64,000 nucleotides of DNA, from contig JABMPX010000005.1 in NCBI GenBank assembly GCA_013203625.1, positions 2,305 to 66,304 of the forward strand, written 5' to 3'. Positions 16,302 through 50,865 of the stretch are shown here, in pieces. Positions within the stretch are counted from its first letter, which is position 1, and every line of letters starts with the position of its first letter. The notes below the pieces were generated by a model. The model saw nothing but the letters and a program-made list of their open reading frames with translations. It was not told the DNA's origin and did not search any database. The translations under genes and the position numbers were made by a program. This stretch comes from Parcubacteria group bacterium. Lineage in GTDB: Bacteria > Patescibacteriota > Minisyncoccia > Portnoybacterales > UBA2143.

Positions 16302-16616
16302 ATGTTTGCAGTAATTAAAACAGGTAGTAAACAGTATTTGGTTTCGCCTGGCGATAAAATCAAAATAGAAAAATTAGAAACAGACGAAGGCAAAGAAATC
16401 ATCTTTGACCAAGTTTTATTATTGGAAAAAAATAAGGCGTTAAAAATAGGCGACCCCTTAGTTAAAGGCGCTAAAGTCACGGCGAAAGTTTTAAAACAAG
16501 ACAGAGCTAAGAAAGTGATTATTTTCAAATACAAGCCCAAGAAACGCTACCAAAAAAAAATGGGCCATCGTCAGCCCTATACAGAAGTAGAGATATTAAA
16601 GTTTGAGGTTTTTTAA
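16302..16616 (+). CDS. rplU: 50S ribosomal protein L21
   Basis: MFAVIKTGSKQYLVSPGDKIKIEKL is the canonical L21 N-terminus. Confidence 0.9.
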   Translation: MFAVIKTGSKQYLVSPGDKIKIEKLETDEGKEIIFDQVLLLEKNKALKIGDPLVKGAKVTAKVLKQDRAKKVIIFKYKPKKRYQKKMGHRQPYTEVEILKFEVF

Positions 16617-16629
16617 GGACTGTCCTTGT

Positions 16630-20577: not shown

Positions 20578-22443
20578 ATGACTAAAATTATTGGCATAGA
20601 TTTAGGAACATCTAATTCAGCAGCTTCAGTAGTTGAAGCTGGCAAACCAACTCTAATTCCTTCAGCTGAAGGAACAGTAGTTGGCGGTGGCAAGGCATTC
20701 CCATCTTATGTAGCTTTTGATAAAGATAATAATCTTTTAGTTGGCGAGTCAGCCCGGCGCCAAGCAATTACTAATCCTAAAAATACGATTACTGCTTTTA
20801 AGCGGAAAATGGGGACTAAGGAAAAATATTCTATAAATAATAAAGATTATACGCCGCAGCAGTTATCCTCTTTTATTTTGCAAAAAATTAAGAAAGACGC
20901 TGAATCATTTTTAGGCGAACCGATACAAAAAGCGGTTATTACAGTGCCAGCTTATTTCAATGACTCTCAAAGGCAGGCGACTAAAGATGCCGGAGCAATT
21001 GCTGGTTTGGAAGTGGAAAGAATTATTAATGAGCCAACAGCAGCTTCTTTAGCTTATGGGATTGACAAGGTGGACAAAGAAGAAAAGATTTTTGTTTTTG
21101 ATTTTGGCGGCGGCACATTAGATGTGACTATTATGGATTTTGGCGATGGAGTTTTTGAAGTTAAATCCACTTCTGGCGATACTGAATTAGGCGGTACTGA
21201 TATGGATGAAATTTTAGTAGATTATATTACAGAAGAATTTAAAAAAGATAATAGCATTGATTTAAAGCAAGACGAAACTGCTGTTCAAAGAGTTAAAGAA
21301 GCAGCGGAAAAAGCAAAAATTGAGCTTTCTTCTACTTTAGAAACAGATCTTAATTTGCCTTTTCTTAGCGCTGATTCAGCTGGGCCAAAGCATCTAACAA
21401 TGAAAATCACCAGAGCTAAATTGGAGGAATTAATAAAGCCAATTATTGAAAAATGCCGCGGGCCAATAGAACAAGCATTAAAAGACTCTAAATTAACGCC
21501 AAATGACATAACTAAAATTATTTTAGTAGGCGGTCCAACCAGAATGCCTATTGTTCAGAGATTTGTTGAGGATTATGTAGGCAAGAAAATTGAAAGGGGA
21601 GTTGACCCAATGGAATGCGTAGCCATGGGAGCGGCTATTCAGGGAGGAATTTTAACTGGCGAGACCAAAGAAGTGCTTTTGCTTGATGTTACTCCATTAA
21701 CTTTAGGGATAGAAACATTAGGCAATGTAATGACACCATTAATTGAAAGAAATACAACAGTACCAGCTTCAAAATCCCAGATTTTTTCAACAGCAGCTGA
21801 TAATCAGCCAGCAGTAGATATTCACGTTCTACAAGGGGAAAGGCCAATGGCTGGCGATAACAGAACATTAGGCAAGTTTATGTTAGACGGTATTCCGCCA
21901 GCTCCGCGGGGAGTTCCTCAAATTGAGGTTACTTTTGATATTGACGCTAATGGCATTTTAGATGTAAAAGCCAAAGATAAAGCTACCAATAAGGAACAGC
22001 ATATTACTATTACTGATTCCTCGGCTCTTTCTAAAGAAGAAATTGAGAAAATGAAACAAGAAGCTGAAATTCATGCAACTGAAGATCGTCAGAAAAAAGA
22101 ATTAATTGAAATTCGCAATCAGGCAGATACTTTAATTTTCTCTACAGAAAAAGCATTAAAAGATGCTGGAGACAAAGTAAAACCAGATGATAAAAAACAG
22201 GTTGAGGAAAAATTAGAAGAATTGAAAAAAATAAAAGATTCTAGTGAAATAGAACCTTTGAAAAAAGCAATTGATGAATTGTCTCAAGAAATTCAGAAAA
22301 TAGGAGCTCAATTATATCAAAAAGTTGAAGAAGAAAAAGCAGAACAATCAGAGCCAGAGATAAAAGGGAAAGAATCTAAAGACAAGACAGTTGAAGGGGA
22401 GTATGAGGAAGTAAAGGAAGAGAAGAAAGAAGAGAAGAAATAA
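20578..22443 (+). CDS. dnaK: molecular chaperone DnaK (Hsp70)
   Basis: [24 protein letters not shown] and [11 protein letters not shown] signatures, acidic C-terminal tail. Confidence 0.95.
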
Positions 22444-22457
22444 AATCTTTATTTTCA

Positions 22458-22517
22458 GAGGCCGTGCTTGAAAACACACAATCTTTGCAAAGGTTGTATG
22501 TTTTCAAGCACGGCCTC
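22458..22517 (+). terminator. 18-bp perfect inverted repeat (probable factor-independent terminator or protein site) after dnaK
   Basis: GAGGCCGTGCTTGAAAAC (22458-22475) pairs with GTTTTCAAGCACGGCCTC (22500-22517). The loop has a nested palindrome TTTGCAAA. Only TT follows the stem. Confidence 0.45.
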
Positions 22518-22524
22518 TTGCGTC

Positions 22525-22554
22525 TTGACAAATTGTATAAATTACTGTTAAGAT
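22525..22554 (+). promoter_or_regulatory. putative promoter TTGACA-N18-TAAGAT
   Basis: TTGACA 22525-22530, TAAGAT 22549-22554, upstream of the Wzz-like gene. Confidence 0.3.
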
Positions 22555-22583
22555 GTAGTTGCCTGAGATAAGGCAATTTTTTT

Positions 22584-23285
22584 ATGACTTTTAAACAAAT
22601 AAATAAAATAATTTATCAAAAAAAATGGCTCGTATTCTGGATAACTGTCCTAGGAGCTGTTTTAGCTTTTGACTTAATGGTTATTCAAACTCCAGAGTAT
22701 AAAGCCAGTTCAAAAGTATTAGTTATTCAGAAACAAATAGCTGGGCAGGATATTTACAGTATTTCCAAATCAGCCCAATATCTTTCCAATGTTTTAAAAG
22801 AAGGAATTTATTCTGATAGTTTTTTTGAAAAAGTTGTTCAATCATCTGAACAAATAAAGGAAAGTGATTTCCCTTCTCAATTAAAAGAAAGACGCAAGCA
22901 ATGGGAAGAGGATGTTAAAGTGAATATTATTCGTGATTTAGGAGTTATAGAAATTAGTGTTGTTCATCCAGAAAAAGAAAAAGCCGAACAAATTAATTGG
23001 ACAGTGACTAATGTTTTAGGAGAAAATCATAGATTTTATCATGGCAGCGGACAGAATGTAGAATTGAAAATCTTAAACAAACCATTAGTTGGCGAGAAAC
23101 CAATTAGTACTAATTTATGGCTTGGAACAATTTTAGGCGCTTTAATTGGATTTTGCGCTGGTGTTGGATTAGCTATAAAAAGAACGTTAAAATCTATTAA
23201 ATTGCCCTATGATCCTAAAAATGACCAAGGTTTATTATTAGCTGATAAATCCTCCTCTTTGGATAGAAATGATTTTTCTATCTAA
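22584..23285 (+). CDS. polysaccharide chain-length determinant (Wzz/CpsC-like) protein
   Basis: N-terminal TM (WLVFWITVLGAVLAF), periplasmic-type middle region, C-terminal TM (GTILGALIGFCAGVGLAIKR). Confidence 0.5.
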   Translation: MTFKQINKIIYQKKWLVFWITVLGAVLAFDLMVIQTPEYKASSKVLVIQKQIAGQDIYSISKSAQYLSNVLKEGIYSDSFFEKVVQSSEQIKESDFPSQLKERRKQWEEDVKVNIIRDLGVIEISVVHPEKEKAEQINWTVTNVLGENHRFYHGSGQNVELKILNKPLVGEKPISTNLWLGTILGALIGFCAGVGLAIKRTLKSIKLPYDPKNDQGLLLADKSSSLDRNDFSI

Positions 23286-23311
23286 AAAGGAGGTTTTTAA
23301 GGAGAAGTTCC

Positions 23312-23340
23312 TTGAAAACTTAATATAAAGAATGTAAATT
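23312..23340 (+). promoter_or_regulatory. putative promoter TTGAAA-N17-TAAATT for the exported-protein operon
   Basis: TTGAAA 23312-23317, TAAATT 23335-23340, followed by a ~75-nt leader and a GGGAGGT RBS. Confidence 0.3.
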
Positions 23341-23417
23341 AGACGATAAACAGGTGAGGAAAGCCGAAGTAATAGGACAGAAGCTGACTAACCCTAAAAA
23401 AATGGGAGGTAAAGAGA

Positions 23418-24134
23418 ATGAAAAAGATAATTGTGGTAGCAATGGTGGCATTGGTATTGGGATTTAGTTTATCAACTTTTGCGGCTGAACCTAATTGGAA
23501 GCATCATATTGTTAAAAAAGGCGATACCCTTTCGGGTTTTGCTTATTCTTGTAGGGTTTCTATTGCGAAAATGATTGAATGGAACCCTAAAACAGGAATA
23601 AATCTTATTTATCCGGGCCAAAAACTTAGGTATTTGGTACCACCGGATATAATAGATGTTATTGGCCGAATCAATGAGGTGATTGGGACAATGGATACTA
23701 TTGTGCCTATAATTCAGCAAAGCGATAGTGAAATCAAGAAAATTATCAGGGAAAATCATGACGGTCTTACCCGGCAAATTGGCCAGGTTCAAGCCAAGCA
23801 GAAACAGAATACTGATATTACTGATATCAAAGATACAAGGATTATGGATCTTGCAATTCTTGCGATCTCTTTGTTTGTTGTAGTTTGTATTGTGTGGTTT
23901 CTTATTTTCCGGTTTAGAAAAGAAGGAAATAATGTAAAAATTTGCCCTGATGATCTTGATAAGATTTATAAGATTACCAATGGTGAAATTTCTGGCCCAG
24001 AAAATTATAAGTGTTGTTTTTGCAACAAGATGATCCAGAAACACAATCTTGCTCGTCATGTAACAAAGAGATGTAAAAAGTCACCGTATTACGAACAAAA
24101 AATCAATAAGGAGGAGGTATCAACAAATGAGTAG
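23418..24134 (+). CDS. exported LysM-domain protein with one TM and a cytoplasmic Cys/His-rich tail
   Basis: Signal peptide MKKIIVVAMVALVLGFSLSTFAAEP; LysM (HIVKKGDTLSGFAY...IYPGQKLRY); TM LAILAISLFVVVCIVWFLIF; tail CPDD...KCCFCNKMIQKHNLARHVTKRC. Confidence 0.6.
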   Translation: MKKIIVVAMVALVLGFSLSTFAAEPNWKHHIVKKGDTLSGFAYSCRVSIAKMIEWNPKTGINLIYPGQKLRYLVPPDIIDVIGRINEVIGTMDTIVPIIQQSDSEIKKIIRENHDGLTRQIGQVQAKQKQNTDITDIKDTRIMDLAILAISLFVVVCIVWFLIFRFRKEGNNVKICPDDLDKIYKITNGEISGPENYKCCFCNKMIQKHNLARHVTKRCKKSPYYEQKINKEEVSTNE

Positions 24135-24987
24135 ACTAACAAAGACCGGTTTATTGCTGATAATGGTGGTTTTGTTGTTGACGCTTTTTAGTGCTTGCGC
24201 CAGACGGAATCTTATTATGTCTGAGAAACACATTAATAAAATTCCTGAAGTTGGCCAGGGCTATAGCGTACTTTGGTGTAATTTTCATCCAATTCTTTTG
24301 ATGTCAGAAGGAATTGGCATTAATCATGCTCTTCATTTTTTTGGAAAGGATGAACCGTACATTGCAGTGAAGGTGCGTGAGAATAAACAAAATTTTCAGA
24401 TGATGGTAATCGTGACCGAGGAAGTCAATTTTGCCGAAGATAGAGCGATGATTCCTTCCCGAAGTGGTGAACGTTTTTATTCTGTTGATGGGAAAGATGT
24501 TTTCAGTGAAAATGGCTATTTAGTCCCTAAGTTTGCGTGGACAAAGATAAAGCCATTAGCTGATACTGGGATTGAGATTTGGCAAAATGTTTTACCTGGT
24601 TCTGAAAGAGATCAAAAAGTAAAAAAGATTTTAGCAGGAATAGGCAAGGGCCTTGATCAAGAAATCCCTGGATTATTTGATCGAGTGATGTCTCAAGTTG
24701 CGAAGATTACAACTGAAGATATTGTATTAGCAGGAGCAACAGATTTTACCAGTTTGTTTGGTCTTTTTGGTATCCGGATTTGGGCAGTTGTTAATGCAAT
24801 TGTCCAGAAGGCCGATTTGTCTTTGCCATTTTACGATACGGCAGTAGTTAATAGATTTCAGTTGGCTACTGCTCTTGAGCCATTTAACTCTTTAACCAAA
24901 GAGCAAGAAAGGGCTATTAATAAATGGTTAAAAGCTCTTGAAGGGTGGCAGAAGAGAGTAGATGCTTATGATGCGCAAATTCAATAA
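24127..24987 (+). CDS. hypothetical lipoprotein
   Basis: N-terminal signal with lipobox-like LFSAC. Overlaps the upstream gene by 8 nt. No known catalytic motif. Confidence 0.5.
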   Translation: MSRLTKTGLLLIMVVLLLTLFSACARRNLIMSEKHINKIPEVGQGYSVLWCNFHPILLMSEGIGINHALHFFGKDEPYIAVKVRENKQNFQMMVIVTEEVNFAEDRAMIPSRSGERFYSVDGKDVFSENGYLVPKFAWTKIKPLADTGIEIWQNVLPGSERDQKVKKILAGIGKGLDQEIPGLFDRVMSQVAKITTEDIVLAGATDFTSLFGLFGIRIWAVVNAIVQKADLSLPFYDTAVVNRFQLATALEPFNSLTKEQERAINKWLKALEGWQKRVDAYDAQIQ

Positions 24988-25058
24988 CTAACCAAAAATT
25001 ACCGTAGAAATAAGTAAACTTTATTAAAGTCAAAACCGACTTTAGAGATAACGCTGAA

Positions 25059-25087
25059 GCCCTTAAAAACTTAAAGCTTTTAAGGGC
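25059..25087 (+). promoter_or_regulatory. 10-bp stem hairpin in the 210-nt intra-operon spacer
   Basis: GCCCTTAAAA-acttaaagc-TTTTAAGGGC, flanked by direct ACGCTGAA copies. No U-tract. Confidence 0.3.
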
Positions 25088-25197
25088 CGACGCTGAATCC
25101 AGACGAGGTAAGACAGAAATAGAGTTTCAATTTTTTATTTCAAGGTAGTTTATGGCATGTAACTCCAAAAAATTTATAGAAAGGAGGCAAGAAAGAT

Positions 25198-26829
25198 ATG
25201 AGAATGAAAAGGTTGTTGTTCATGCTGTTAATGATGTTTTTTGCCAGTGTAAACCTTGCCTCTACTAGTCAAGCAGGCAAGATTTATACAGTAGTGGAAC
25301 CCAAAATAACCATAAAGAAGTATAAAGTAGTTGACAAAGATACATTGTCGCAAATATGTTCTCGTTTTTACGGGAATGGCAGGTCGTCTGCTTATAATGC
25401 TTTAGCGGCTTGGGGAAATCAAGTAACACATGAAAAACTTTGGGTTTTTGTAGGACAGATTTTAGAGATTCCCTTTCCTCTGATTTTAAACCAGAACGAA
25501 GCTGGTATTAATCCGACAATTCTGCCAATTGAAGAAACAACCAAATTGACAATTAAACAATTAAAACAAAGTTTAACCCAAACTGATATCCAGGCAACTA
25601 TTCCTAATAATCTTTCAAAATCAATTATTTCTGGCTTAAAAACTTCTCAGAAATTTCATAATTTAAACAATGAAATTGTAGCAGCTGTTAGCTTTGGCAA
25701 AAAAGCGCAGGGCTGGACCATGATTAACGTTAAAAAAGAGTTAATTGGGAAATCCACATCTTCAACTATTAATAAAAATTTTGAGATTAGAGCCACTTTG
25801 CCCGATTGCAATAACCTATATTTACAGTTAATTCGGGTTTCTGAGAAAAAGCTTAATGCCAAAAGGATGCTATTACGACTTCCACCCCCACCTCCATTTC
25901 CGCCAATTTTAAAAGCCGAAATTCAAAAGGTCTTACTTGCTGAATATGCAAAAATTATAGCTAAATATGGTTGGGATTGGGATTCCACAGGGGGTTATTT
26001 CAAAGAGCGTTATACGGACGGAAACAATGTCAAAGGTTGGTGGCAGTCAAGCGTTCTTTATCCTTTTGTCTCCAATGACATTGAGGGCAATGAATGGTCA
26101 TTTGGTCTGGCTTATACTATTAGAGATTGGTCTGGGGAAACCGGTGAAGTAAACCCGTTCTATTATAATGGCATAGTGAATATTGAGTCATTGGCTGGAC
26201 GCTTTCGGGATAGCGACCGAAATTGGGAAATTCTTGGCCGAGTTGGACTTGGTCAACGCGAAGATAGTGGCTATTTAACTAATGAGTGGGGTCGTTTTGA
26301 CACGGAGCAAGAAACAAACATTTTTAATGCTTATTCTTCTGCTGAATACAGCGAAAATAAGACGTGGTTTTCCAAAATACGTGTTTCTGGCGAAGTAGAA
26401 ATAGGGCTCAATGAAGAGAAAGAAAGCTATTGGACTGACCAATGGGATGGTCGACAAAAGTTGGATAATCAACCTGATGATAAAGATAGATATGAATTTG
26501 CTCTATACTCTGATGTTTTTACTTTTGACGAAGACAAGAATATTCAGATTTGGAGCGAATTTCGAAGCACTTACTATAATGAAGAATATAAATGGGGGAA
26601 CGGAATAAAAGGTGGTTTATCATTCTTAAATGGTTCTTTGAAAGTAGGTCTTGGCTATACAGCATGGAACCAGAGCAATGCAGATTCTACTGGTTTTTAT
26701 GGAGAGGTGAATCTGTATAATCTTTACCATTGTGCTTTCGGCTATCCAAAAAGATATTCTGATGAAGATATTTTTGTTCCAATTAACCAGAAGGAAAAAG
26801 AGGAAGAGATTTTAGAAATGTTAATGTAA
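25198..26829 (+). CDS. secreted protein: N-terminal LysM-like domain, poly-proline linker, C-terminal beta-barrel-like domain
   Basis: Signal peptide ending ASTSQA; YKVVDKDTLSQICSRFYG...VGQILEIP (LysM-like); LRLPPPPPFPP; C-terminal ~300 aa Gly/aromatic-rich with alternating hydrophobics. GGAGG RBS. Confidence 0.55.
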   Translation: MRMKRLLFMLLMMFFASVNLASTSQAGKIYTVVEPKITIKKYKVVDKDTLSQICSRFYGNGRSSAYNALAAWGNQVTHEKLWVFVGQILEIPFPLILNQNEAGINPTILPIEETTKLTIKQLKQSLTQTDIQATIPNNLSKSIISGLKTSQKFHNLNNEIVAAVSFGKKAQGWTMINVKKELIGKSTSSTINKNFEIRATLPDCNNLYLQLIRVSEKKLNAKRMLLRLPPPPPFPPILKAEIQKVLLAEYAKIIAKYGWDWDSTGGYFKERYTDGNNVKGWWQSSVLYPFVSNDIEGNEWSFGLAYTIRDWSGETGEVNPFYYNGIVNIESLAGRFRDSDRNWEILGRVGLGQREDSGYLTNEWGRFDTEQETNIFNAYSSAEYSENKTWFSKIRVSGEVEIGLNEEKESYWTDQWDGRQKLDNQPDDKDRYEFALYSDVFTFDEDKNIQIWSEFRSTYYNEEYKWGNGIKGGLSFLNGSLKVGLGYTAWNQSNADSTGFYGEVNLYNLYHCAFGYPKRYSDEDIFVPINQKEKEEEILEMLM

Positions 26830-26851
26830 TACCAAAACAGGAGGCATCAAA

Positions 26852-27514
26852 ATGAAAAGGTTATTTAAATTAATTGCAATGATTGCAACCGCATTTTTTT
26901 TGATTAGTGGATGCGCAGCTATTCAAAAAAAGGGTACAACAAAAAACTGGGAAAAGGAAGTAAAGGAGATAATGAACACTGGTGTAACCGAGGCAGATCC
27001 TAATGTTTTGGCCAAAGATAGTAAATCTGTGATCACGGTTGAGGACATAGGTGACAGGGTTTATTATACGATTACTAATCCGTGGTTAACCCCCAAAGGG
27101 GATACCAAAGGCAAGAATTTAAAGCGGGCCGTTAAACTGAAAATCGCCTCGGGGATTCTGGATGCAAAAGGGAAAAACCCATATTTTACCATGGTAGAAG
27201 TCAAAGATAACAAGGCCGAATTTAGTCTTCCGAATTTTGCCCGGGCCAAGGGTGTAAAAGTTCCTGTGGTTGAACATGGCTGGGGATATGGCCAAGCAGC
27301 TGACGGAACTGTTGGTTATTTGGTTCTTGACCCCAATAGCCCATGGGTTGTATATAAGACAAAAGCTTTTGGAGGGCATCTGACAGAGTCAAGGGACAGA
27401 GCTGATCTGGAAACATTGGCCATAGGGTCAGTTATGTATCCAGGTAAACCAACCGCGCCATTAAAGGCGATTGGAAAAGGCAAGTTGAAACAGGGTATGC
27501 ACCCTGAATTATAA
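26852..27514 (+). CDS. hypothetical lipoprotein
   Basis: Signal plus lipobox FLISGC, GGAGG RBS. No known catalytic motif. Confidence 0.55.
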   Translation: MKRLFKLIAMIATAFFLISGCAAIQKKGTTKNWEKEVKEIMNTGVTEADPNVLAKDSKSVITVEDIGDRVYYTITNPWLTPKGDTKGKNLKRAVKLKIASGILDAKGKNPYFTMVEVKDNKAEFSLPNFARAKGVKVPVVEHGWGYGQAADGTVGYLVLDPNSPWVVYKTKAFGGHLTESRDRADLETLAIGSVMYPGKPTAPLKAIGKGKLKQGMHPEL

Positions 27515-27519
27515 AAAAA

Positions 27520-27578
27520 GCCGGAAAAACCGGCAAGCAATAACCCCATACGTTAAGGAGGAAACGAATGGGGTTTTT
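27520..27578. terminator. pair of convergent rho-independent terminators
   Basis: GCCGG-aaaaa-CCGGC with an A7 run upstream (a T7 run for the minus-strand gene). CCCCAT...ATGGGG followed by TTTTT for the plus operon. Confidence 0.55.
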
Positions 27579-28803
27579 AATTTTTAATCTTTATCCAACC
27601 GGCCAATAAAATCCAGAAGTTCCATTGAAGCGCGGTAGTTCGCAAAATATTATCAAAAAAACTAGCTATGAATAAACTTAGGCAAATTACTAAAATGCCC
27701 AGACCCAAAACCTTTTCTTGATTAATACTTTTTCTAAAGATTTTGAAAAGTTTTAATAACAAAGCAACAATTAACCAAAAATAAGCTATTAATCCTAAAA
27801 TACCGTTTTCCACAAATATTTTTAAATAATCATTATGAGCATCTAAACTGCCCCAGTTAAACCCGCGGTAAAATTCAGCTAAATTAGTAAAAGTGTCTAG
27901 CCCATAACCAAACCAGGGCTGCCACAAAGATACAGGCAGAATGTCTTGCCAAAGCCGGAACCGCCAGACCATTGACCCATAAGGATCTAAAGTAATTAAT
28001 TCCCATAATCGCTGTTGAAAAATATCAGAAAAGAAATAAATAATTAAAAAGAAAAATAGACCGGCTAAAAGTAATTTTCTGTATTTTAAAATGCCGAAAA
28101 ACAGAATAAAAATAAAAAGACAGGCCAAAGCGCTACGGCTGTAAGTGGCAAAGAGTAAAAGAACTAAAAAAGCAGCAGCTATCCAAATATGAAAATTAAA
28201 ATTTTTCCATGAGACAATATCATCCTTTTTTGTTTCTGACAAAGACAGTAATAAAGAAAGAACTATGCCTAAAATAAAAAAAGTGTAAAAAGCAAAAAGA
28301 CTGGGACATGAAAAAGTGCCGTAAATTCTGTTAAATCCGCCAAAATCATCAGGTAAGCCAAAACCGCCAATTAACTGAACAAAAGCAAAGATGCCAGGTA
28401 AAATATAGCTAATTAGAATAATTTTTAATAAAAGGAGCCAATCTTTTCTGTTTTCTATAAGCTTGTAGGCCAAGAAATAAAGGAAGAAGATGCTGGTTAG
28501 TCGGATGAATTCTCTAATACTACCCAAAGCGTCTATTGAATAAAAAATGCTAATTAATGATAACCCCAAAAAGCAAAGGATAGGATAAAAAAGCGGAATT
28601 GATTTAATTGATTTGAAATTTTTAAAAATAAAAATCAGACAAACTAAAAAGACCAGTCCGCCAATAATAATATTAAGATTTAAATAAGGCAAACTAGAAT
28701 GAATCCTGAATTCTTTTTGGCTAAGGAGATCTAAAGAAGGTCTTAGCAAGACCAAAGCAAGAATAAAATAAAAGAAGTTTTTCTTATCTTTTGCCATTGA
28801 CAT
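27577..28803 (-). CDS. O-antigen ligase/polymerase-like (Wzy_C family) membrane protein
   Basis: About 10-12 TMs with the conserved YSRSALACLF segment. Confidence 0.45.
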   Translation of the reverse strand: MSMAKDKKNFFYFILALVLLRPSLDLLSQKEFRIHSSLPYLNLNIIIGGLVFLVCLIFIFKNFKSIKSIPLFYPILCFLGLSLISIFYSIDALGSIREFIRLTSIFFLYFLAYKLIENRKDWLLLLKIILISYILPGIFAFVQLIGGFGLPDDFGGFNRIYGTFSCPSLFAFYTFFILGIVLSLLLSLSETKKDDIVSWKNFNFHIWIAAAFLVLLLFATYSRSALACLFIFILFFGILKYRKLLLAGLFFFLIIYFFSDIFQQRLWELITLDPYGSMVWRFRLWQDILPVSLWQPWFGYGLDTFTNLAEFYRGFNWGSLDAHNDYLKIFVENGILGLIAYFWLIVALLLKLFKIFRKSINQEKVLGLGILVICLSLFIASFFDNILRTTALQWNFWILLAGWIKIKN

Positions 28804-28832
28804 TTTCCGTAATTTTTAGTAGAATAACAATA

Positions 28833-29876
28833 ATGAAAACAAATAAATCACCCAAAGAAAATCAAATAAAAGATGTTGTTTTAGCAATTACTTACCAATG
28901 TAATGCCCATTGTCAGTTTTGCCATATTTGGAAAAACAAAGAGCGATTTTCTTTACAAGCAGGTGATTATAAAAATTTACCACGAAATACAGAAAACATC
29001 AATATCAGCGGAGGAGAACCATTTTTAAGAAACGACTTACCAGCAATTATCCGTACGATTAATCATCAATGTTCTAGAGCTAAAATTATTATTTCTACTA
29101 ACGGCTTTTTACCAAGCACAATTAAAAGGCAAATGCAGGAAATTATTAAATTCAAAAAAGACATTGGAATTGCTGTTTCTTTAGATGGTTTTGGCAAGGT
29201 TCATGAAGATTTAAGAGGATTTCCAGGCGGATTCAGCTTGGTTTTAGAAAGCATCCGTCTTTTAAGAGATTTAGGCATAAAAAATTTGAAGATTGCTTTT
29301 ACTTTAAATAATAAGAATATTAATCAATTAAAAAGAGTTTATCAATTGAGTAAAGAATTAGGCGTGGAATTCAGTTTAGCAGTTTGTCATGACTCTTCCC
29401 ATTATTTTAAAAAGCAAAACAATGAAATTACAAACACTATACAGATTAAAAGACAAATCAGTTGGTTGATTGAAGAAGAGCTAAAGAGTTTTTCTCCAAA
29501 GAAATGGCTAAGAGCTTATTTTGCCTGGGGCATGCTTGGATTTTTAAAGAATAGAAAAAGAGTCTTGCCGGATTATTCTGGTTTAAATTCCTTGTTTATT
29601 GATCCTTTTGGCAATATTTACCCTTCAGATGTTTGGGATATGAAAATTGGCAGGTTGCAAGAAATAAAAAATTGGAATAGTTTTGTTTTAAAGACAAAAG
29701 AAATACTTTTATCTAAAGACAAAGAAAGACCAAATAGTTGGATGATTTGCACAGCTCGTCAGGCAATGAAAAAACATTGGTTGAAAGTCAGCTTGTGGAT
29801 ATTGCAGACAAAATTTTGCAGCAACAAAAAAGTATATGGTTTTACTTTTGTGCAAAATAGAGCAGCAATACAATGA
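28833..29876 (+). CDS. radical SAM domain protein (polysaccharide-locus associated)
   Basis: CNAHCQFCHIW (CxxxCxxC) near the N-terminus and GGEPFL motif. Start trimmed to ATG 28833 to avoid overlap with the divergent gene. Confidence 0.65.
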   Translation: MKTNKSPKENQIKDVVLAITYQCNAHCQFCHIWKNKERFSLQAGDYKNLPRNTENINISGGEPFLRNDLPAIIRTINHQCSRAKIIISTNGFLPSTIKRQMQEIIKFKKDIGIAVSLDGFGKVHEDLRGFPGGFSLVLESIRLLRDLGIKNLKIAFTLNNKNINQLKRVYQLSKELGVEFSLAVCHDSSHYFKKQNNEITNTIQIKRQISWLIEEELKSFSPKKWLRAYFAWGMLGFLKNRKRVLPDYSGLNSLFIDPFGNIYPSDVWDMKIGRLQEIKNWNSFVLKTKEILLSKDKERPNSWMICTARQAMKKHWLKVSLWILQTKFCSNKKVYGFTFVQNRAAIQ

Positions 29877-31162
29877 AAATTCTTCAAATAAACAAATTTT
29901 TCTTTTTAAAAGGCGGATCAGAACGATACTTCTTTGATTTATCTGAATTGTTATTTAAAAAAGGGCATGAAGTTATTGTTTGGAGTACACAGAATCCGAA
30001 AAATTTACCTTGGCCTAGACAAGAAAATTTTGCTGAATTCAGTGATTTTTCCAAGAAGCAAGGATTAATAAAAGATTTTAAGAAAGTAAGACGCATTTTT
30101 TGGAATAAAGAAGCTAAAAGAAAATTAGAGAAGATTATTAAAGAAGTCCCGATGGCAAAGTCATCGAGGATCCTCGACGCTGAAAGCGTCGGGAAAAAAC
30201 CAGATATAGCTCATCTACATAATATTTTCAGCCATCTTTCTCCTTCAATAATTTTTGCATTAAAAAAGCATGGCATTCCTATAGTAATGACCTTGCATGA
30301 TTATAAGCTGTTTTGTCCGAATTATCAGTTTTTTTCTCAGGGAGAAACCTGTTTTGATTGTTTGAAGAAAAAAAATTATTCTTCTTGTATATCTAAAAAA
30401 TGCATTAAGAATTCAAGGATTAAAAGCTTGATTGGTTATTTAGAAGCAAAATCACAAAGAGATTTTTTAAAAGTAGCGGATAAAATTAATATTTTTTTAA
30501 CACCGAGTATGTTTATGAAAAGAAAAGCGATAGAATGGGGCATTCCTAATGAAAAAGTTATTCATTTGCCGAATTTTATAGATGAAAATTATATAAGCAA
30601 AAAGTCAGAAAATAAAAAACAATCTAATTACTTTCTTTATTTTGGAAGATTAAGTCATGAAAAAGGAGTAAAGCTTTTAATAAAAGCGTTTTCTAAAACA
30701 AAAGATGAATTATCTGATTGGCAGCTGAAAATAGTTGGCGATGGTCCAGAAAAAGAAAGATTAAAAAATTTAGCCAAAGAACAAAAGCGAATAGAATTTT
30801 TAGGAGGGAAAAAAGGCAAAGAGTTGAAAGAAATAATTATTAATGCTAATTTGGTTGTTATACCTTCTATCTGGCCAGAGAATTTTCCTTATAGCGCTTT
30901 AGAAAGCTTTGCTTTGTCTAAACCAGTAATAGCAGCTAAAAATGGCGGTTTAACAGAATTAATTAAAGACAGAAAAACCGGCTTATTATTCAAATCAGGA
31001 AATGAAAAAGATTTAATAGAAAAACTTATTTGGGCGAATGATTATAAAGAAGAGCTTAAGCAAATGGGTAAAACGGCTAAAAAAGAAGTTTTAGCTCAAT
31101 ATAATCCGGAAAAGCATTATCAAAAGTTGATTAAAGTATATGAAAGAATCAAAAACAATTAA
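29873..31162 (+). CDS. glycosyltransferase family 4 (GT-B fold)
   Basis: FGRLSHEKGVKLLIKAF and ENFPYSALESFALSKPVIAAKNGG (EX7E-type) motifs; Cys-rich insert CFDC...C...C. Confidence 0.7.
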   Translation: MKILQINKFFFLKGGSERYFFDLSELLFKKGHEVIVWSTQNPKNLPWPRQENFAEFSDFSKKQGLIKDFKKVRRIFWNKEAKRKLEKIIKEVPMAKSSRILDAESVGKKPDIAHLHNIFSHLSPSIIFALKKHGIPIVMTLHDYKLFCPNYQFFSQGETCFDCLKKKNYSSCISKKCIKNSRIKSLIGYLEAKSQRDFLKVADKINIFLTPSMFMKRKAIEWGIPNEKVIHLPNFIDENYISKKSENKKQSNYFLYFGRLSHEKGVKLLIKAFSKTKDELSDWQLKIVGDGPEKERLKNLAKEQKRIEFLGGKKGKELKEIIINANLVVIPSIWPENFPYSALESFALSKPVIAAKNGGLTELIKDRKTGLLFKSGNEKDLIEKLIWANDYKEELKQMGKTAKKEVLAQYNPEKHYQKLIKVYERIKNN

Positions 31163-32510
31163 AATTTTAATAGGATTATCATTGATCTTGCTTATAGCAG
31201 GCGGTTTTATGTTTTATCAAAAAGGATGGATTAAGGAAATCTCTTTAAGCTCATTAAGCGATAGCTTAAGATTAAACAAAGATAAGCTTGAACAATTATC
31301 TCTTTTAAAGATAATTCCAGAAATAGCTGGTTTTGGCAAAGAAAAAACATATTTGTTGCTTTTTCAAAATAATTTAGAAATAAGGCCTAGTGGCGGCTAT
31401 TTAGGAACTTTTGGAATTTTAAAAGTAAAAAATGGCCAGCCATGTTTTTTTGAAGTTCATGATACTAATATTTTTGATGGATTTGGCACAATTAAAACAG
31501 AACCGCCTCAGCCAATAAAGGATTATCTTAAAATAGATAATTGGCAAATGAGAGATGGGAACTGGTCTCCTGATTGGCCAACTTCAGCTCAGCAAGTTGA
31601 ATATTTTTATCAAATCCAGGGCGGTGAGGAGAAATTTGACGGGATTATTGGAATTAACGCTGCAATTCTGCCTAATTTATTAAAATTAACAGGCCCAATT
31701 TATTTAGAAGAATTTGATAAGGAATTTAAAGCAGAAGATGTTCTTTATGAATTAGAATATGAAGTAGAAAAAGGATATGTTCAGCGCGGAATAATTCCAG
31801 GAGAAAGAAAATCAATTTTTAAAGCATTAATTAAGAAAGTATTAGAGCAAGTAGTTCAAGATAATTTTTGGGAACAGAAAGAATTAAAGAATTTTGCTAT
31901 AAATGAACTGGATAAAAAAAATGTTCTGGTATTTTTTAAGGATGCTGAACTTCAAGGAACAATGGTTAAATTTGAATGGGCTGGATTAGTTAATCAATCA
32001 GAACAAGATGATTATTTAATGATTAATGAAGCTAATTTAGCTTCTAAAAAAAGCAGCGCTTTTGTTAAAAGGCAAATTGAATATTCTGTTGATTTGACAG
32101 GAACCAGGCCTTTGGTGAATTTGAAAATTAAGTTCACTCATAAAGGTGGAGACAAAGATTGGTTTAATGATGATTATCGTTCTTATTTAAGAATTTATGC
32201 GCCAAAAGGCAGCTGGTTTTTAAAAGCAAAAGGAGTAGAAAATGGAACAAAATTTCTTGATGAATTAAATAAAACAGTTTTTGGCAATTTAATAATCGTG
32301 CCAACTGGGCAAGAAAAAACAATTGAATTTACTTATCTTTTACCAGAAAGAATAGAGCAAAAGGATGATTATAGTATTTTAGTTCAGAAACAATCAGGCA
32401 TAGATAATATCCCTTTCAAGTTAGTCCTAAAAGATGTTAATCAAAAAGAATATATTAGAGAAAAAATTATTGAAAAAGATTACGAGGAGGAAATCTTATT
32501 TATAAGATGA
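31140..32510 (+). CDS. hypothetical membrane-anchored extracytoplasmic protein (glycan-locus associated)
   Basis: Single N-terminal TM (ILIGLSLILLIAGGFMF) and a large hydrophilic domain with no recognised catalytic motif. Confidence 0.4.
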   Translation: MKESKTIKILIGLSLILLIAGGFMFYQKGWIKEISLSSLSDSLRLNKDKLEQLSLLKIIPEIAGFGKEKTYLLLFQNNLEIRPSGGYLGTFGILKVKNGQPCFFEVHDTNIFDGFGTIKTEPPQPIKDYLKIDNWQMRDGNWSPDWPTSAQQVEYFYQIQGGEEKFDGIIGINAAILPNLLKLTGPIYLEEFDKEFKAEDVLYELEYEVEKGYVQRGIIPGERKSIFKALIKKVLEQVVQDNFWEQKELKNFAINELDKKNVLVFFKDAELQGTMVKFEWAGLVNQSEQDDYLMINEANLASKKSSAFVKRQIEYSVDLTGTRPLVNLKIKFTHKGGDKDWFNDDYRSYLRIYAPKGSWFLKAKGVENGTKFLDELNKTVFGNLIIVPTGQEKTIEFTYLLPERIEQKDDYSILVQKQSGIDNIPFKLVLKDVNQKEYIREKIIEKDYEEEILFIR

Positions 32511-33622
32511 AAATAGCAATGATTGGTCAAAAAGGCATACCTACGCTTTTTGGAGGAATAGAGCGCCATGTTGAGGGGATTTCTTTAAATTTGGCTCAAA
32601 AAAAAGATCCAGCTGGCTTGCTATACCAAGTATTTGTCTATGCCAGGCCTTATTACACTCCTAAAAAAATCAAGCAGTATAAAAAAGTAAATGTTGTTCA
32701 TTTGCCAAGCTTAAAAACAAAACATTTAGATGCTATTAGTCATGTTTTTTTGGCTAGCTGGCATGCTATTTTTAAAATTAAGCCGGACATTATTCACTAT
32801 CATGGCATTGGACCAGGTTTATGTGTTTGGATACCTAAATTATTTAGTCCAAAAACAAAAGTTATTTTCACTTTCCATTGTAGGGATTATTTTCATAAAA
32901 AATGGGGTGGGTTTGCCCGATTGTCTTTGAAAATAGGGGAAATGATTAGCTGTTATTTAGCTGATGAGGTTATTCCAGTTTCTTTGGAAATACAAAAATA
33001 TATTGAGGAAAAATATAATCGTCAGACCAATTTTATTCCGCATGGAGTTAATCAAGAAAAATTTACTCCAGCTGAAATAATTAAAAAATGGGGATTGGAA
33101 AAAGATGATTATATTATAGCAGTTAGCCGTTTAATTAAGCACAAGGGCATTCATTATTTAATTAAAGCTTTTCAGAATATTAAAACTAAAAAGAAATTAG
33201 TCATTGTTGGGCCTTGTTTTTATACTGAAAAATATGAACAAAAACTTAAGCAAATAGCTAAAAACGATTCAAGAATTCTCTTTTTGGGAACTCAGCAAGG
33301 AAAAGCATTAAAAGAACTTTTCAGCAATGCGTATTTTTTTGTTAATCCTTCAGAACAGGAAGGATTGCCTTTTACAGTTTTAGAAGCAGCTAGTTTTAAT
33401 CAAGCGCTTTTAATTTCAAATATTCCTATTCACCAAAAAATGTTTGGAGATTTACCTTTTTTCTTTGAGAATAAAAACATTAAAGATTTAAAAGAAAAAA
33501 TAGAATTTCTTTTAAAAAATCCTCAATTGGTCTGTGAAAGAGCAAGAAAACTTAGAGATTATGCCAGACAAAATTATAATTGGGACGAGGTTGTGGAAAG
33601 AACAATTTTGATATATATTTAA
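32507..33622 (+). CDS. glycosyltransferase family 4
   Basis: MKIAMIGQKGIPTLFGGIERHVEGI N-terminus and EGLPFTVLEAASFNQALLISN C-terminal motif. Confidence 0.7.
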   Translation: MKIAMIGQKGIPTLFGGIERHVEGISLNLAQKKDPAGLLYQVFVYARPYYTPKKIKQYKKVNVVHLPSLKTKHLDAISHVFLASWHAIFKIKPDIIHYHGIGPGLCVWIPKLFSPKTKVIFTFHCRDYFHKKWGGFARLSLKIGEMISCYLADEVIPVSLEIQKYIEEKYNRQTNFIPHGVNQEKFTPAEIIKKWGLEKDDYIIAVSRLIKHKGIHYLIKAFQNIKTKKKLVIVGPCFYTEKYEQKLKQIAKNDSRILFLGTQQGKALKELFSNAYFFVNPSEQEGLPFTVLEAASFNQALLISNIPIHQKMFGDLPFFFENKNIKDLKEKIEFLLKNPQLVCERARKLRDYARQNYNWDEVVERTILIYI

Positions 33623-33641
33623 TTTGTGGTAAAATTTAGAA

Positions 33642-34388
33642 ATGCATAGAAACCGCATCACACAATCAGTTATTTTAGGTTTAACCACTTTTGTAGCTGC
33701 CTTTGCTTGGATTGGCTTAAAAGGAGTTTTATTTGAAAATGGAAATTGGATCTGGCCAAGCAGCGGCTTTTTAATTTTACTTATTTTTCTTGGATTAGGC
33801 TGGTTAATAACAAAATCAAAAGCAATTTTATTTATCAGTTTATCAATTATCTTAATCTGTTTTTTCTTTTCTTTTGGCTTTAAATTGGAATATTTAGCGG
33901 TTATTTTAATCGCTTTATTGCTTTTTGTCTTTGGTTCCTGTATGGCAATTAATGAAAAAGAAATTAGAATTAAGATTGAAGTAAGAAGAATTCTTAAAAG
34001 AGGACTGCCAACTGTTTTAACTGGATTGTGTTTAATTATTGCCGCAGCTTACTACTTTTCTCCTTTAGCTCTATATGGTCAAAATAAGATTGAAATGCCT
34101 CGGCCTTTGTTTGATATAATTATCGGTCCAGTAACAGGCATGAATGATGAATTTAAAGATGATTTTTATCAAACAATTAATCAGGAAATTAACAGACATA
34201 GCCAGTCCTATAAACAATACTTTTCTCTTGGCTTGACTGCAGGTTTCTTTTTTGCTTTAAGAACAGTAGCCGTTGTTTTTAGTTGGTTGGTTATTTTATT
34301 AACCTCGTTGATTTTTAAAATTTTAGTTTCTCTAGGAGCAATTAAAATACAAGAAAAAGCAGTTTTGAAAGAAGTAATTGAAATTTAA
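33642..34388 (+). CDS. hypothetical integral membrane protein
   Basis: About 6 predicted TMs, no motif. Confidence 0.4.
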
Positions 34389-34395
34389 ATTTTTT

Positions 34396-35487
34396 ATGCC
34401 TAAAGATTATTATGAAATTCTTGGCGTTCCTCGCAGCGCGTCAGAGCAGGAAATAAAAAAGACATATCGAAAATTAGCTCTTAAATATCATCCTGATCGC
34501 GCGCCAAAAGATAAAAAAAAGGAATACGAAGAAAAATTTAAAAAAATCAGCCAGGCCTACGGGGTTCTTTCTGATAAAGACAAAAAAGCTCAATATGACC
34601 AATATGGTCAGACATTTGATGGAGCGCAAGGAATGCCTTTTGGCCAACAAGATTTCCATTCTTTCCATGAAGCATTTGGTGGACAGGATATTTTTGAAGA
34701 TTTAGGTTTCGGAAGAATTTTTGAAGAGATGTTCGGTTTTAGGCAAAGAACAGGAACAAAGCCAGATGTTCAATATGGCCAGGATATTTCTTTAGATATG
34801 GAAATTGATTTAGAAGATTCTTTTCATGGCATTGAAAAAGAGATTAGTTTGCGAAAAATGGTTGTTTGTCAAGAATGCAATGGCAAAGGAGGCAAGTTGC
34901 TGAAAAAATGTTCAGCTTGCGAAGGAAGTGGGTATGAACAAGTAAGTAATAGAAGCTTATTTGGTATTTTTATTCAACAAAGACCATGTTCTAAATGTTA
35001 TGGCAGGGGAGAAATGCCTGAAAAAACTTGTGCAGAATGCCGCGGCCAAGGACGAATCAAACAAGCTGAAAAAATTAAAATAACTGTTCCTTTTGGCATT
35101 GAAAACGGACAGGTTTTAAAACTAACAGGCCAGGGGGAAGCAGGCCCTTATAATGTGCCAGCTGGCGATTTGTTTGTTAATATTCATATACGGCCTCATA
35201 AGCATTTTCAGCGCCAGGGAGTAAATTTAATATTAAATCTAGATATTAACTTTTCTCAAGCTGCTTTAGGTGATAAAATAGAAATACCATTATTAGATGG
35301 AAAAGTTAATTTAAAGATTCCGTCTGGCATTCAGCCAGGAGAGATGATAGAGTTAAAAGGCAAGGGCATGCCTAAATTATACGGAAAAGGACAAGGAAAT
35401 TTAATTGTTAAAATTCAAGTAAATGTTCCTAAAAAAGTATCTCGCAGACAGAGAAATATTATAGAGGAGTTAAAAAAAGAAATTTAA
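34396..35487 (+). CDS. dnaJ: chaperone DnaJ
   Basis: J-domain [32 protein letters not shown], four CxxCxGxG zinc-finger repeats, C-terminal domains. Confidence 0.9.
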
Positions 35488-35492
35488 TTTTT

Positions 35493-36029
35493 ATGCGTGA
35501 GTTTTTAACTAATTTTCATATTGGCGCGGCTTCAGGATGGGATTTATTTATTATCCTGATTTTTCTGATTGCTGTTCTTGTTTATGGTTTTTTCTTGGGC
35601 CGCAATAGAATGATTATTTTGCTTTTAAGCAGTTATTTTTCTTTGGCTATTATTCAAGTTTTTCCGTGGATAAAATTAAGCTCTTTGGGCTGGTTAGGTA
35701 TTGATGCAGAACCTTCATCTTCCTTGAAAATTTTAATCTTTTTGGGTATTATTTTATTATTATATTTTTTAATTCCTCGTTCTATACTTACTTCAACTTT
35801 AAGGATTAAAAGAAGGGGAGAGGCGTCTTGGCTGCGATTGTTTATTTTAAGCATTGCTCAAGTTGGGTTATTAGCTATGATTATTCTTTCTTTTTTATCA
35901 ATCCAAGTAATTAGCGATCTTGGCTATTGGATTAAAAAGATATTTATTGGTCCAGAAGCTCAATTTGTCTGGATTACTCTGCCGATTATAGTTATAATTT
36001 TAATGCGCAGGAAGAAAAAAGCGGAATAA
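35493..36029 (+). CDS. hypothetical integral membrane protein
   Basis: 4-5 TMs, no motif. Confidence 0.4.
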   Translation: MREFLTNFHIGAASGWDLFIILIFLIAVLVYGFFLGRNRMIILLLSSYFSLAIIQVFPWIKLSSLGWLGIDAEPSSSLKILIFLGIILLLYFLIPRSILTSTLRIKRRGEASWLRLFILSIAQVGLLAMIILSFLSIQVISDLGYWIKKIFIGPEAQFVWITLPIIVIILMRRKKKAE

Positions 36030-36035
36030 AAATAA

Positions 36036-36109
36036 GCGCCGTTAGCTCAGCCCGGTAGAGCAATTGCCTTTTAAGCAACTGGTCGGGGGTTCGAATCCCT
36101 CACGGCGCA
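36036..36109 (+). tRNA. tRNA-Lys (anticodon TTT)
   Basis: GCGCCGTTAGCTCAGCCCGGTAGAGCA..., anticodon loop CTTTTAA, T-arm GGTTCGAATCCC, 3' ACGGCGCA. Confidence 0.85.
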
Positions 36110-36131
36110 CTGGGAATATATGAATTTAATG

Positions 36132-36160
36132 TTGACATTAGTTTTAGTTGTTAGTAAAAT
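36132..36160 (+). promoter_or_regulatory. promoter TTGACA-N17-TAAAAT for hicBA
   Basis: TTGACA 36132-36137, TAAAAT 36155-36160. The hicB ATG lies only ~9 nt downstream. Confidence 0.4.
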
Positions 36161-36168
36161 ATCAATAT

Positions 36169-36417
36169 ATGAATAAATCTTTTTTATCTAAAATTAAAGA
36201 CAATCGTTTTCCTTTAGTGGTTGAAAAAGACGAAGATGGTTTTTATGTGGTTGAATGCACTCTTTTTAAGGGTTGTTATTCTCAAGGGAAAACATTAGAT
36301 AAGGCCTTAGAAAATATTAAGGAGGTTATTGAGCTTTGTTTGGAGGAAAAAGAAAATCAGGAAATAATAAAATCATATAAGCCTAAAGAATTAAGTCTGC
36401 ATACTATTACGCTTTAA
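36169..36417 (+). CDS. hicB: type II antitoxin, HicB family (UPF0150-type minimal form)
   Basis: GFYVVECTLFKGCYSQGKTLDKALENIKEVIELCLEE matches the HicB N-domain signature (GCvsqGeT.eEA..n..eAi). Confidence 0.7.
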   Translation: MNKSFLSKIKDNRFPLVVEKDEDGFYVVECTLFKGCYSQGKTLDKALENIKEVIELCLEEKENQEIIKSYKPKELSLHTITL

Positions 36418-36420
36418 TTT

Positions 36421-36645
36421 ATGGCGAAATTACCATCAATTTCTGGAAAAAAAGCAATAAAAACATTTGAAAAAATTGGCTACCAAATAATTAGAAAAAA
36501 AGGTAGTCATTTTCGTTTATATCATCCAAATAAAGAGCCAATAACTATTCCTAATCACAAAAATTTAGCTAAAGGGCTTTTAAGAAAAATATTAAGAGAT
36601 GCGGAAATTTCTGTTAAAGAGTTTATTGACTTGCTTAAAAGATAA
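36421..36645 (+). CDS. hicA: type II toxin, HicA family mRNA interferase
   Basis: GKKAIKTFEKIGYQIIRKKGSHFRLYHPN carries the HicA GSH signature and dsRBD-like length (74 aa). Starts 3 nt after hicB. Confidence 0.75.
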   Translation: MAKLPSISGKKAIKTFEKIGYQIIRKKGSHFRLYHPNKEPITIPNHKNLAKGLLRKILRDAEISVKEFIDLLKR

Positions 36646-36768
36646 TTTCAGAGGCCGTGCACATTACCACTAAAAATTGACAGGATAATATATTTATGTT
36701 ATCCTATTTTTAATAGTTCATAGTAGTTCATAAAAAACTGAATAAAAAACTTTAGACAGGAGGTTGTT
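36646..36768 (+). promoter_or_regulatory. regulatory region: ATTTCAGAGGCCGTGC motif, TTGACA, 22-bp palindrome GGATAAtatatttatgTTATCC, direct repeats, AGGAGG RBS
   Basis: Motif 36646-36660; TTGACA 36677-36682; palindrome 36683-36704; AGTTCATA x2 (36715, 36725); ATAAAAAACT x2 (36730, 36742); AGGAGG 36758-36763. Confidence 0.35.
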
Positions 36769-37074
36769 ATGGAAAAGGTTCTTTTAAGAAATGGAAGTGA
36801 AATAGACAAGAATATTGTTGTTGCGATAATGGTGGGAATGGAAATGTTATTGAAAACCGAAAATCCAATGGACAAACACATACTTCTTTATGAGCTGAGA
36901 GAAAGATGTAAAAATCCGAATCATGAATTCTACGCTGATTCGGAAGAAAAACTGAAACAGTATGGATTAATCCAATCCATTGGAATCCATGAATCGGCTC
37001 GTAATATTATTCTGTCAGCCATCAAAGAAGAAGAAGGTGGCGCTATAATGACCTGGGAATCTCCCATGGCATAG
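36769..37074 (+). CDS. hypothetical protein (101 aa, no recognisable family)
   Basis: Strong AGGAGG RBS. GC and codon usage differ from flanking genes. Confidence 0.5.
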   Translation: MEKVLLRNGSEIDKNIVVAIMVGMEMLLKTENPMDKHILLYELRERCKNPNHEFYADSEEKLKQYGLIQSIGIHESARNIILSAIKEEEGGAIMTWESPMA

Positions 37075-37111
37075 AGGGTTAACTCTTAACGAAAAATAAG
37101 GAGGAATTGTG

Positions 37112-37549: not shown

Positions 37550-37565
37550 AAGAAACTTTCATTAA

Positions 37566-37604
37566 GCGCCTAGTTCCTAAATTTGGAACCAAGGCGCTTT
37601 TTTT
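37566..37604 (+). terminator. rho-independent terminator
   Basis: GCGCC..GTTCC-taaattt-GGAAC..GGCGC hairpin followed by TTTTTTT. Confidence 0.6.
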
Positions 37605-47977: not shown

Positions 47978-48029
47978 AGATATATAGTCGCATAATATAC
48001 CTTAATACACATTTAATATATTTAAATAT

Positions 48030-48974: not shown

Positions 48975-48978
48975 ATTT

Positions 48979-50124: not shown

Positions 50125-50125
50125 C

Positions 50126-50524: not shown

Positions 50525-50530
50525 TATAAT

Positions 50531-50856: not shown

Positions 50857-50865
50857 TTAGTGCTG

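Follow-up and report, generated by a model that had tools for sequence, protein, structure and literature searches.

A strain-variable palindromic element after dnaK, probably one of a dispersed repeat family in a Parcubacteria clade

The long hairpin that follows dnaK in this genome is probably one copy of a palindromic repeat family residing in the intergenic spacers of a Parcubacteria clade with tiny genomes, as judged from sequence comparison. The units of this family would be near-perfect palindromes of about 40-70 nt, sometimes nested to about 120 nt, and they seem to be REPIN/MITE-like DNA, non-autonomous and either mobile or recombinogenic. On this reading, they come and go between close relatives, one element inserts into another or takes over its place, full hairpins exist beside half copies ('singlets'), and in some genomes there may have been an expansion to dozens of near-identical copies. 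A 15-mer that occurs twice in the window (the whole 64-kb stretch of DNA analysed, with a GC content of about 32%) would be the outer end of one subfamily, named here after its core GGCCGTGC, including a short conserved 5' extension, TTTCA. The mobility of the family is inferred from comparisons between relatives.

The feature is real but modest, and selfish or structural DNA of this kind is nothing unusual. The genomes of CPR/Patescibacteria are considered highly reduced, and no description of REP-, REPIN- or MITE-like repeats in this group was found in the literature. If confirmed, a strain-variable palindromic family would mark rearrangement hot spots and assembly breaks in these metagenome-assembled genomes (MAGs), provide a strain-typing signal, and constitute a test case for the spread of elements without an obvious transposase. 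In annotation, long hairpins of this family should not be read as terminators or island borders.

The hairpin between dnaK and wzz

The hairpin (Table 1) lies in a region that reads corA (minus strand), grpE-hsp20-dnaK, the hairpin itself, the wzz promoter, a small hairpin with T7, and a wzz-like gene, followed by genes for LysM and unknown exported proteins, wzy (minus strand), and radical-SAM, GT4, DUF4012 and GT4 genes. The second GT4 gene is followed by a 248-aa gene, dnaJ, a 178-aa gene, tRNA-Lys, a promoter, hicB-hicA and the second copy of the motif, and then by another promoter, a 101-aa gene, a HIT-family gene, a terminator and asnS (a label used here for a class II aminoacyl-tRNA synthetase gene).

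Table 1. Coordinates of the features discussed in the window
Feature	Position	Strand	Remarks
Half copy, type 1	16611-16629	-	fills the 13-nt spacer of the convergent rplU/recR stops; nhmmer E 0.0047
Motif copy 1	22453-22467	+	TTTC 5' extension and outer 11 nt of the left arm
Full 62-nt palindromic element, GGCCGTGC ('W') subfamily	22457-22518	.	dnaK-wzz spacer
wzz promoter, then small hairpin and T7 before the wzz ATG	22525-22578	+	TTGACA-18-TAAGAT; conserved; not part of the repeat
Lineage-specific 1.49-kb insertion, tRNA-Lys to asnS	36113-37600	+	absent from relatives
Motif copy 2, probable truncated (singlet) W-type	36646-36660	+	abuts the hicA stop; no partner arm

By far the longest hairpin of the whole window, this element consists of 20-bp perfect arms (AGAGGCCGTGCTTGAAAACA and TGTTTTCAAGCACGGCCTCT), a 1x1 mismatch, 8 more pairs and a UGCA loop. 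The initial annotation had rightly seen a perfect palindrome here but had sized it at 18 bp, short of the 20-bp perfect arms and the 62-nt hairpin that contains them. The predicted RNA fold has a minimum free energy of -45.1 kcal/mol (z = -11.9), and the same segment folded as DNA reaches -29.2 kcal/mol; the inner stem includes one U-G pair, functional on the sense strand only. Since the dnaK stop occupies 22441-22443, the motif begins 9 nt later and the hairpin 13 nt after the stop, so that the placement of the motif directly after stop codons, as first described, applies to hicA but not to dnaK. The TTTC extension falls outside the stem, the right flank being TGCG and not GAAA. TTGACA hexamers are indeed present downstream of both copies of the motif (at 22525 and 36677), but they belong to the promoters of the downstream genes and not to the repeat.

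The small hairpin of the wzz leader (TTGCCT-N6-AGGCAA followed by T7, at 22557-22578) stands immediately 5' of the wzz ATG and begins about where the conserved promoter (22525-22554) would initiate. Its stem is kept while its loop varies in the relatives L025, L027, L029, L039 and L206, and it contains the only SD-like AAGG. The -35 and -10 regions of the wzz promoter also pair with each other (z = -5.7). This small hairpin with its T7 may be what really terminates dnaK, or it may serve wzz as an attenuator or translational element.

Judged by its DnaK homologues, the window stems from a Parcubacteria/Patescibacteria MAG. Relatives of the source genome were ranked by DnaK identity: 96% for L025/L033, 93% for L027 and L029, 88% for L206, 86% for L208 and 84% for L039/L040. 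The order dnaK-wzz-...-wzy-rSAM-GT-DUF4012-GT-dnaJ is kept down to 84% DnaK identity, L208 excepted. Because the dnaK-wzz synteny is conserved, the first site is no island border, and the proposal that an exported-protein island starts there is not supported; the variable genes begin only after wzz. These genes, lying between wzz and wzy (23300-27520 in the window), encode LysM and unknown exported proteins; each relative has its own number and sizes of them between conserved flanks, as seen across the window, L025, L027, L029, L039 and L206, and the interval is a hypervariable surface-protein slot.

Every relative with the dnaK-wzz arrangement (L025, L027, L029, L039, L206) carries a hairpin at the same spot, but of different sequence. 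The spacers of L025 and L027 hold a 62-nt AAAGGACAGTCCTTAAAATTACATCC... palindrome, that of L029 an approximately 117-nt structure in which a GGCCACGCC hairpin is nested within a GGCCGTGCC hairpin, that of L039 a short GGAACAGTCC hairpin, and that of L206 a composite of about 230 nt, larger composites flanking dnaK on both sides; in L208, a canonical bidirectional T-tract terminator follows dnaK instead. Between the window and L025, identity amounts to 93% in dnaK, 98% in wzz and 97% in the promoter, against 51% in the hairpin segment. The corresponding values for L027 and L029 are 97%, 95% and 98%, against 44%, and the relation is reversed between L025 and L027, with 84%, 81% and 76% in the flanks and 92% in the hairpin segment. 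The hairpin types found at this spacer are, thus, incongruent with the phylogeny. The hairpins of the window and L025 both measure 62 nt, and 15 of their 30 pairs are altered on both sides with pairing retained. Such paired double changes amid near-identical flanks point to the replacement of one palindrome by another, and not to gradual drift.

The same observations bear on the view that the dnaK operon has in this hairpin a terminator or 3'-end structure of its own, confined to this locus, evolving in place by compensatory substitutions and unrelated to the second copy of the motif. Its position between the dnaK stop, which it closely follows, and a conserved promoter, its high stability, its maintenance in six lineages (the window, L025, L027, L029, L039 and L206) and a U-G pair that works on the sense strand only are what such a structure would display. 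However, with flanks 93-98% identical, 15 double changes are far too many, too fast, for evolution in place, the hairpin types are at odds with the phylogeny, and the same elements stand at many unrelated loci, also inside operons before start codons, which leaves this view distinctly improbable.

A terminator role of the hairpin is, likewise, unlikely. As the initial annotation had noted, no U-tract follows it, the next bases being TGCGTCTTGACA, and the stem-loop with a direct U-tract at the end of a transcription unit that defines an intrinsic terminator is, therefore, missing; the reading as a repeated terminator is not supported. Intra-operon copies that end 8-12 nt short of a start codon (at hsp20|dnaK in L027, at 267aa|dnaJ in L039, and in L198) also speak against it, as do the canonical T-tract terminators that are common in this lineage and the conserved, terminator-like small hairpin with T7 located 40 nt downstream. 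Rho-independent terminators also form GC-rich stem-loops immediately after stop codons, but the stem here is 3-4 times longer, lacks a U-tract, and has copies that are tolerated right before intra-operon starts. As the tail of the grpE-hsp20-dnaK transcript, the hairpin would probably act as a 3' exonuclease barrier or as an RNase III-type processing site; we infer this protection or processing of the dnaK 3' end, a role of the kind reported for REPs. At the Rfam 15 gathering score only tRNAs were retrieved, the hairpin yielding sub-threshold generic miRNA-precursor matches and the second site nothing.

Dispersed copies and subfamilies

The main subfamily, designated type 1, has the core GGACAGTCC. 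Its arm AAGGACAGTCCTTAAAAT was found in 43 stretches of species-representative genomes, 34 of them in Patescibacteria MAGs (including 25 in CAYPQZ01), and the 9 single matches in other taxa equal the chance expectation. An nhmmer profile search of about 400 kb of sampled loci retrieved 76 distinct copies, full or half, some 53 of which came from CAYPQZ01 loci (at most 200 kb sampled). Many of these copies are near-identical to one asymmetric master copy of about 68 nt. Orientation relative to tandem genes is biased 10:2. Since one CAYPQZ01 locus (L187) is identical to L039 over about 100 nt, CAYPQZ01 is taken as the same population as L039, or a very closely related one. The many copies that characterize REP and REPIN families are, thus, seen in CAYPQZ01, while about 75 kb of the source genome hold 3.

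The source genome appears to be copy-poor, these 3 being one full and two half copies. No further core or right arm occurs in the window, even with mismatches allowed, and about 11 kb of the source contig beyond the window contain none either. The 15-mer has 20 matches in viral contigs, with unrelated flanks as expected by chance, the type-1 arm has none there, and among the matches listed for GAGGCCGTGC-N{10,40}-GCACGGCCTC in metagenome contigs, unrelated high-GC contigs were found and none that is CPR-like.

The subfamilies differ in their outer GC-rich stems (GGAC[A/G/C]GTCC, GGCCGTGC(C) or GGCCACGCC), which lead into a common interior of the CTT[A/G]AAA...CTTTGCAAAG type. Hairpins with GGCCGTGC(C) and the same interior occur in L029 (its outer hairpin), L194 (928-1006), L195, L198, L203 and L206, and the 8-mer core has 12 matches in 457 kb against about 2 expected, almost all in hairpins of this kind. 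The type-1 nhmmer profile does not detect the window hairpin; the homology of the subfamilies, thus, rests on position, equal length and architecture. Both hairpin doublets and singlets exist, the window containing one full copy (22457-22518) and two halves (36646-36660 and 16611-16629). Half copies that abut stop codons are also found at L027 5618, L039 620 and L200 4985, besides the one in the rplU/recR spacer of the window.

Presence/absence polymorphism, which is typical of MITEs, was observed at three places. The hsp20|dnaK site contains an element of about 60 nt in L027 and is empty in the window, L025 and L029; the dnaJ|178aa spacer measures 5-11 nt in the window and L033, and is filled by composite elements of about 190 nt in L036; and L029 carries the nested copy after dnaK. 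Besides the 60-nt copy between hsp20 and dnaK, L027 has one that separates wzy from a 167-aa gene, one of 40 nt that precedes a Phd/RelE-like pair, and a half copy ahead of rplU. In L027 242-800, the 40-nt GGGACAGTCCCC-type copy is followed immediately by a TTGACA promoter and a pair of small genes, Phd/YefM-like and toxin-like, which the window lacks. In CAYPQZ01, the palindromic element is often joined on its right side by a second repeat module (CCTTGTCAAAATTTAAGGAGTCGTCCTTTCCCTCCGGAGGCGGACA...; L163, L169, L183, L185, L193, L195), the two together forming BIME-like mosaics, and a related piece precedes a full copy at L036 8023-8064.

Neisseria and Pasteurellaceae carry DNA-uptake sequences as inverted pairs after genes, and CPR bacteria depend on DNA uptake. 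The GC-rich cores might, in this light, be selected protein-recognition sequences, either uptake sequences of this kind or a heat-shock operator. The quasi-palindromic 9-mer cores (GGAC-N-GTCC, GGC-NNN-GCC), set in inverted pairs downstream of genes, and the general reliance of CPR on DNA uptake would suit this proposal. Against it, the CIRCE/HrcA sequence TTAGCACTC-N9-GAGTGCTAA has no match at up to 3 mismatches, and the elements are not confined to heat-shock genes. The window has only 3 cores per 64 kb, none of them in coding DNA. The core, moreover, differs between near-identical strains at the same locus, and whole units of about 65 nt are conserved, not merely the core. Selected recognition sequences are, for these reasons, a very improbable explanation.

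The copy after hicA and the repeated 15-mer

The initial annotation had reported a repeated string at two distant loci, and two exact copies of TTTCAGAGGCCGTGC are present in the window (Table 1), both on the plus strand, no further match being found in the whole window at up to 2 mismatches. The shared string extends to TA[T/A]TTTCAGAGGCCGTGC, with 17 of 18 bases identical between the two sites; similarity ends abruptly beyond these 15-18 nt. The second copy starts at the base next to the hicA stop (36643-36645). As was also noted at the outset, only the left arm is present here, a complementary right arm being absent from the entire window, and the copy is unpaired in the predicted fold, which forms no hairpin at this site.

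The expected number of recurrences of this particular word TTTCAGAGGCCGTGC is 4.4e-5, and no other direct repeat of the window is as improbable. Nevertheless, 10 of 40 Markov-simulated 64-kb windows contained a repeat of at least 14 nt with an expectation of 1.9e-5 or less, i.e., below that value. Because simulated windows so often hold equally improbable repeats, the 15-mer repeat by itself, judged window-wide, is not significant and is only suggestive; it gains credibility from the family context in other genomes. Conditional on the hairpin region, the probability that any 15-mer of it recurs is about 0.02.

Coincidence, with a palindromic element at the first site and a hicA-proximal string of separate origin, is an alternative. 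Apart from the simulations, it accords with a match of only 15-18 nt that ends abruptly, with the lack of a hairpin at the second site, and with the marginal score of this copy (9.1 bits, E 0.77) against a W-arm profile built without it. On the other hand, the conditional probability of about 0.02 is reached even before an intergenic, stop-adjacent position is required, and the family regularly includes truncated singlets next to stop codons. The match also spans the end of the element that is GC-rich and diagnostic, together with a TTTCA extension that recurs in another genome: the TTTCA[A/G]AGGCCGTGC end of the first copy is found again at L198 6169, where the element (6170-6262, about 80% like that of the window in its interior) begins TTTCAAAGGCCGTGCCTTAAAATATACAACCTT and its start reads TTTCAAAGGCCGTGCC. 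The recurrence of this prefix supports a truncated copy over coincidence, which we hold to be unlikely. The string after hicA is, according to these comparisons, probably a truncated singlet at the joint of two accessory modules.

These modules belong to the 1.49-kb insertion, which comprises hicB, hicA, the second copy of the motif, a promoter, the 101-aa orphan gene, the HIT-family gene and its own terminator (37564-37599). In L033, L036 and L039, tRNA-Lys, a T-tract terminator and asnS are directly adjacent, with no insertion; in the window, the insertion takes the place of the terminator that follows tRNA-Lys in these relatives. Two Logan contigs of the same strain end within tRNA-Lys. The motif sits between the hicBA and 101aa-HIT modules and not at the outer edge of the insertion, for which no direct or inverted bounding partner of the motif and no integrase were found. 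The 101-aa protein has a single homologue (L041), where the 98aa-HIT module has its own promoter and lacks the motif. As 101aa-HIT is, therefore, an independent, motif-free module elsewhere, the motif marks an internal joint of accessory DNA and not a border. The earlier idea that the HIT cassette begins at this site is, thus, right in that the motif lies within accessory DNA, at the hicBA/101aa-HIT joint, and wrong as regards an outer border.

A recombination-junction reading, in which the copies are att-like direct repeats bounding a 14.2-kb segment (22468-36660), or else island borders, would draw on the equal orientation of the two repeats, on the location of the second site in accessory DNA beside a tRNA gene, and on the L027 copy that precedes a Phd/RelE-like toxin-antitoxin cassette. 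It is barely credible, given that all relatives keep the 14.2-kb segment in synteny, dnaJ and tRNA-Lys included, that this segment is devoid of any integrase or transposase, and that the true insertion (36113-37600) is not bounded by the motif. The specific case of a tRNA-Lys att duplication with a repeat-bounded 14.2-kb island was rejected: the 3' end of the tRNA has no second copy, and the gene order is kept.

Two further observations concern this region. The terminator after the HIT gene (37564-37599; AAGCGCCTAGTTCC...GGAACCAAGGCGCTTTTTTTT) closely resembles one at L041 700-735, located upstream of the homologous 98aa-HIT module on an unrelated contig, which hints that the HIT module moves together with, or into, such terminator hairpins. 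The tRNA-Lys(UUU) genes at the same syntenic position are quite unlike one another in sequence between the window (36036-36110) and L033, on one side, and L036 (8789-8861) and L039 (15137-15209), on the other; the tRNA-Lys gene appears to have been replaced between these lineages.

Nearest known systems and possible modes of spread

Two groups of known elements come close. REPINs are REP doublets that form hairpins and are mobilised by RAYT tyrosine transposases, and bacterial MITEs include the Correia elements of Neisseria, the pneumococcal RUP and the Rickettsia palindromic elements. Like bacterial MITEs, the present elements are small and non-coding, have two inverted ends, vary in presence between strains, insert at gene ends, occur inside operons, and would form long RNA hairpins once transcribed. 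They differ from MITEs in that no target-site duplication, parent IS or element-borne promoter can be demonstrated, and in their length of about 60 nt, below that of most MITEs. At hsp20|dnaK and dnaJ|178aa, no target-site duplication is readable, and none can be defined because the junction sequences have diverged; among the 248 ORFs of copy-rich loci, no multi-copy IS-like gene was found that could represent a parent IS.

The initial reading of a REP-like element fits best what was found, namely a dispersed, indel-polymorphic palindromic family with full and half copies. PMC3733652, PMC3116915 and PMC3337134 describe REPs as short, GC-stemmed extragenic palindromes lying mainly after coding regions, present in many copies in some genomes as long-hairpin doublets and decayed singlets, combined into clusters or mosaics with other repeat modules, and divided into species- or strain-specific subfamilies, all of which is also seen here; according to the same papers, REPs are plausibly transcribed as RNA hairpins. 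A REP end carries a conserved unpaired GTAG or CGTC tag, as stated in PMC3733652. Such a terminal tag is lacking here, the ends being (T/G)ATAAGG... or TTTCA[A/G]AGG..., with CGTC found only inside type-1 stems. The architecture differs from that of REPINs as well, with near-perfect contiguous arms in a single stem of 28-30 bp instead of two REP stem-loops and a spacer, and no RAYT gene was found in the ORFs of the window or among the 248 ORFs examined at copy-rich loci. The host, moreover, belongs to the CPR, which the REP surveys consulted do not mention. With no GTAG/CGTC tag and no demonstrable RAYT, target-site duplication or parent IS, the elements are not filed as members of the REPIN/REP or MITE families.

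A bolder scenario, to which we give a small chance, is that hairpin elements home into existing hairpins, forming an active family in streamlined CPR genomes of about 1 Mb. No recognisable RAYT or IS partner would be needed for their spread, which might follow a single-strand (replication-linked) mechanism, and the elements might also have been co-opted as intra-operon modules of mRNA processing or stability. Homing into hairpins would explain the nested copy of L029 and the swapping of subfamilies at the dnaK spacer, and a single-strand, replication-linked spread is hinted at by the 10:2 orientation bias relative to gene direction.

Among the window ORFs of at least 90 aa, no transposase was found (RAYT/Y1/HUH included), and a XerC/D-like gene (48030-48974) is the only recombinase of the window. 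This gene and a PD-(D/E)XK nuclease gene (48979-50124) lie beside a switch near 50 kb (about 48000-51000), where the GC skew reverses its sign and the genes pass from plus to minus orientation; the interval looks like a replication terminus region.
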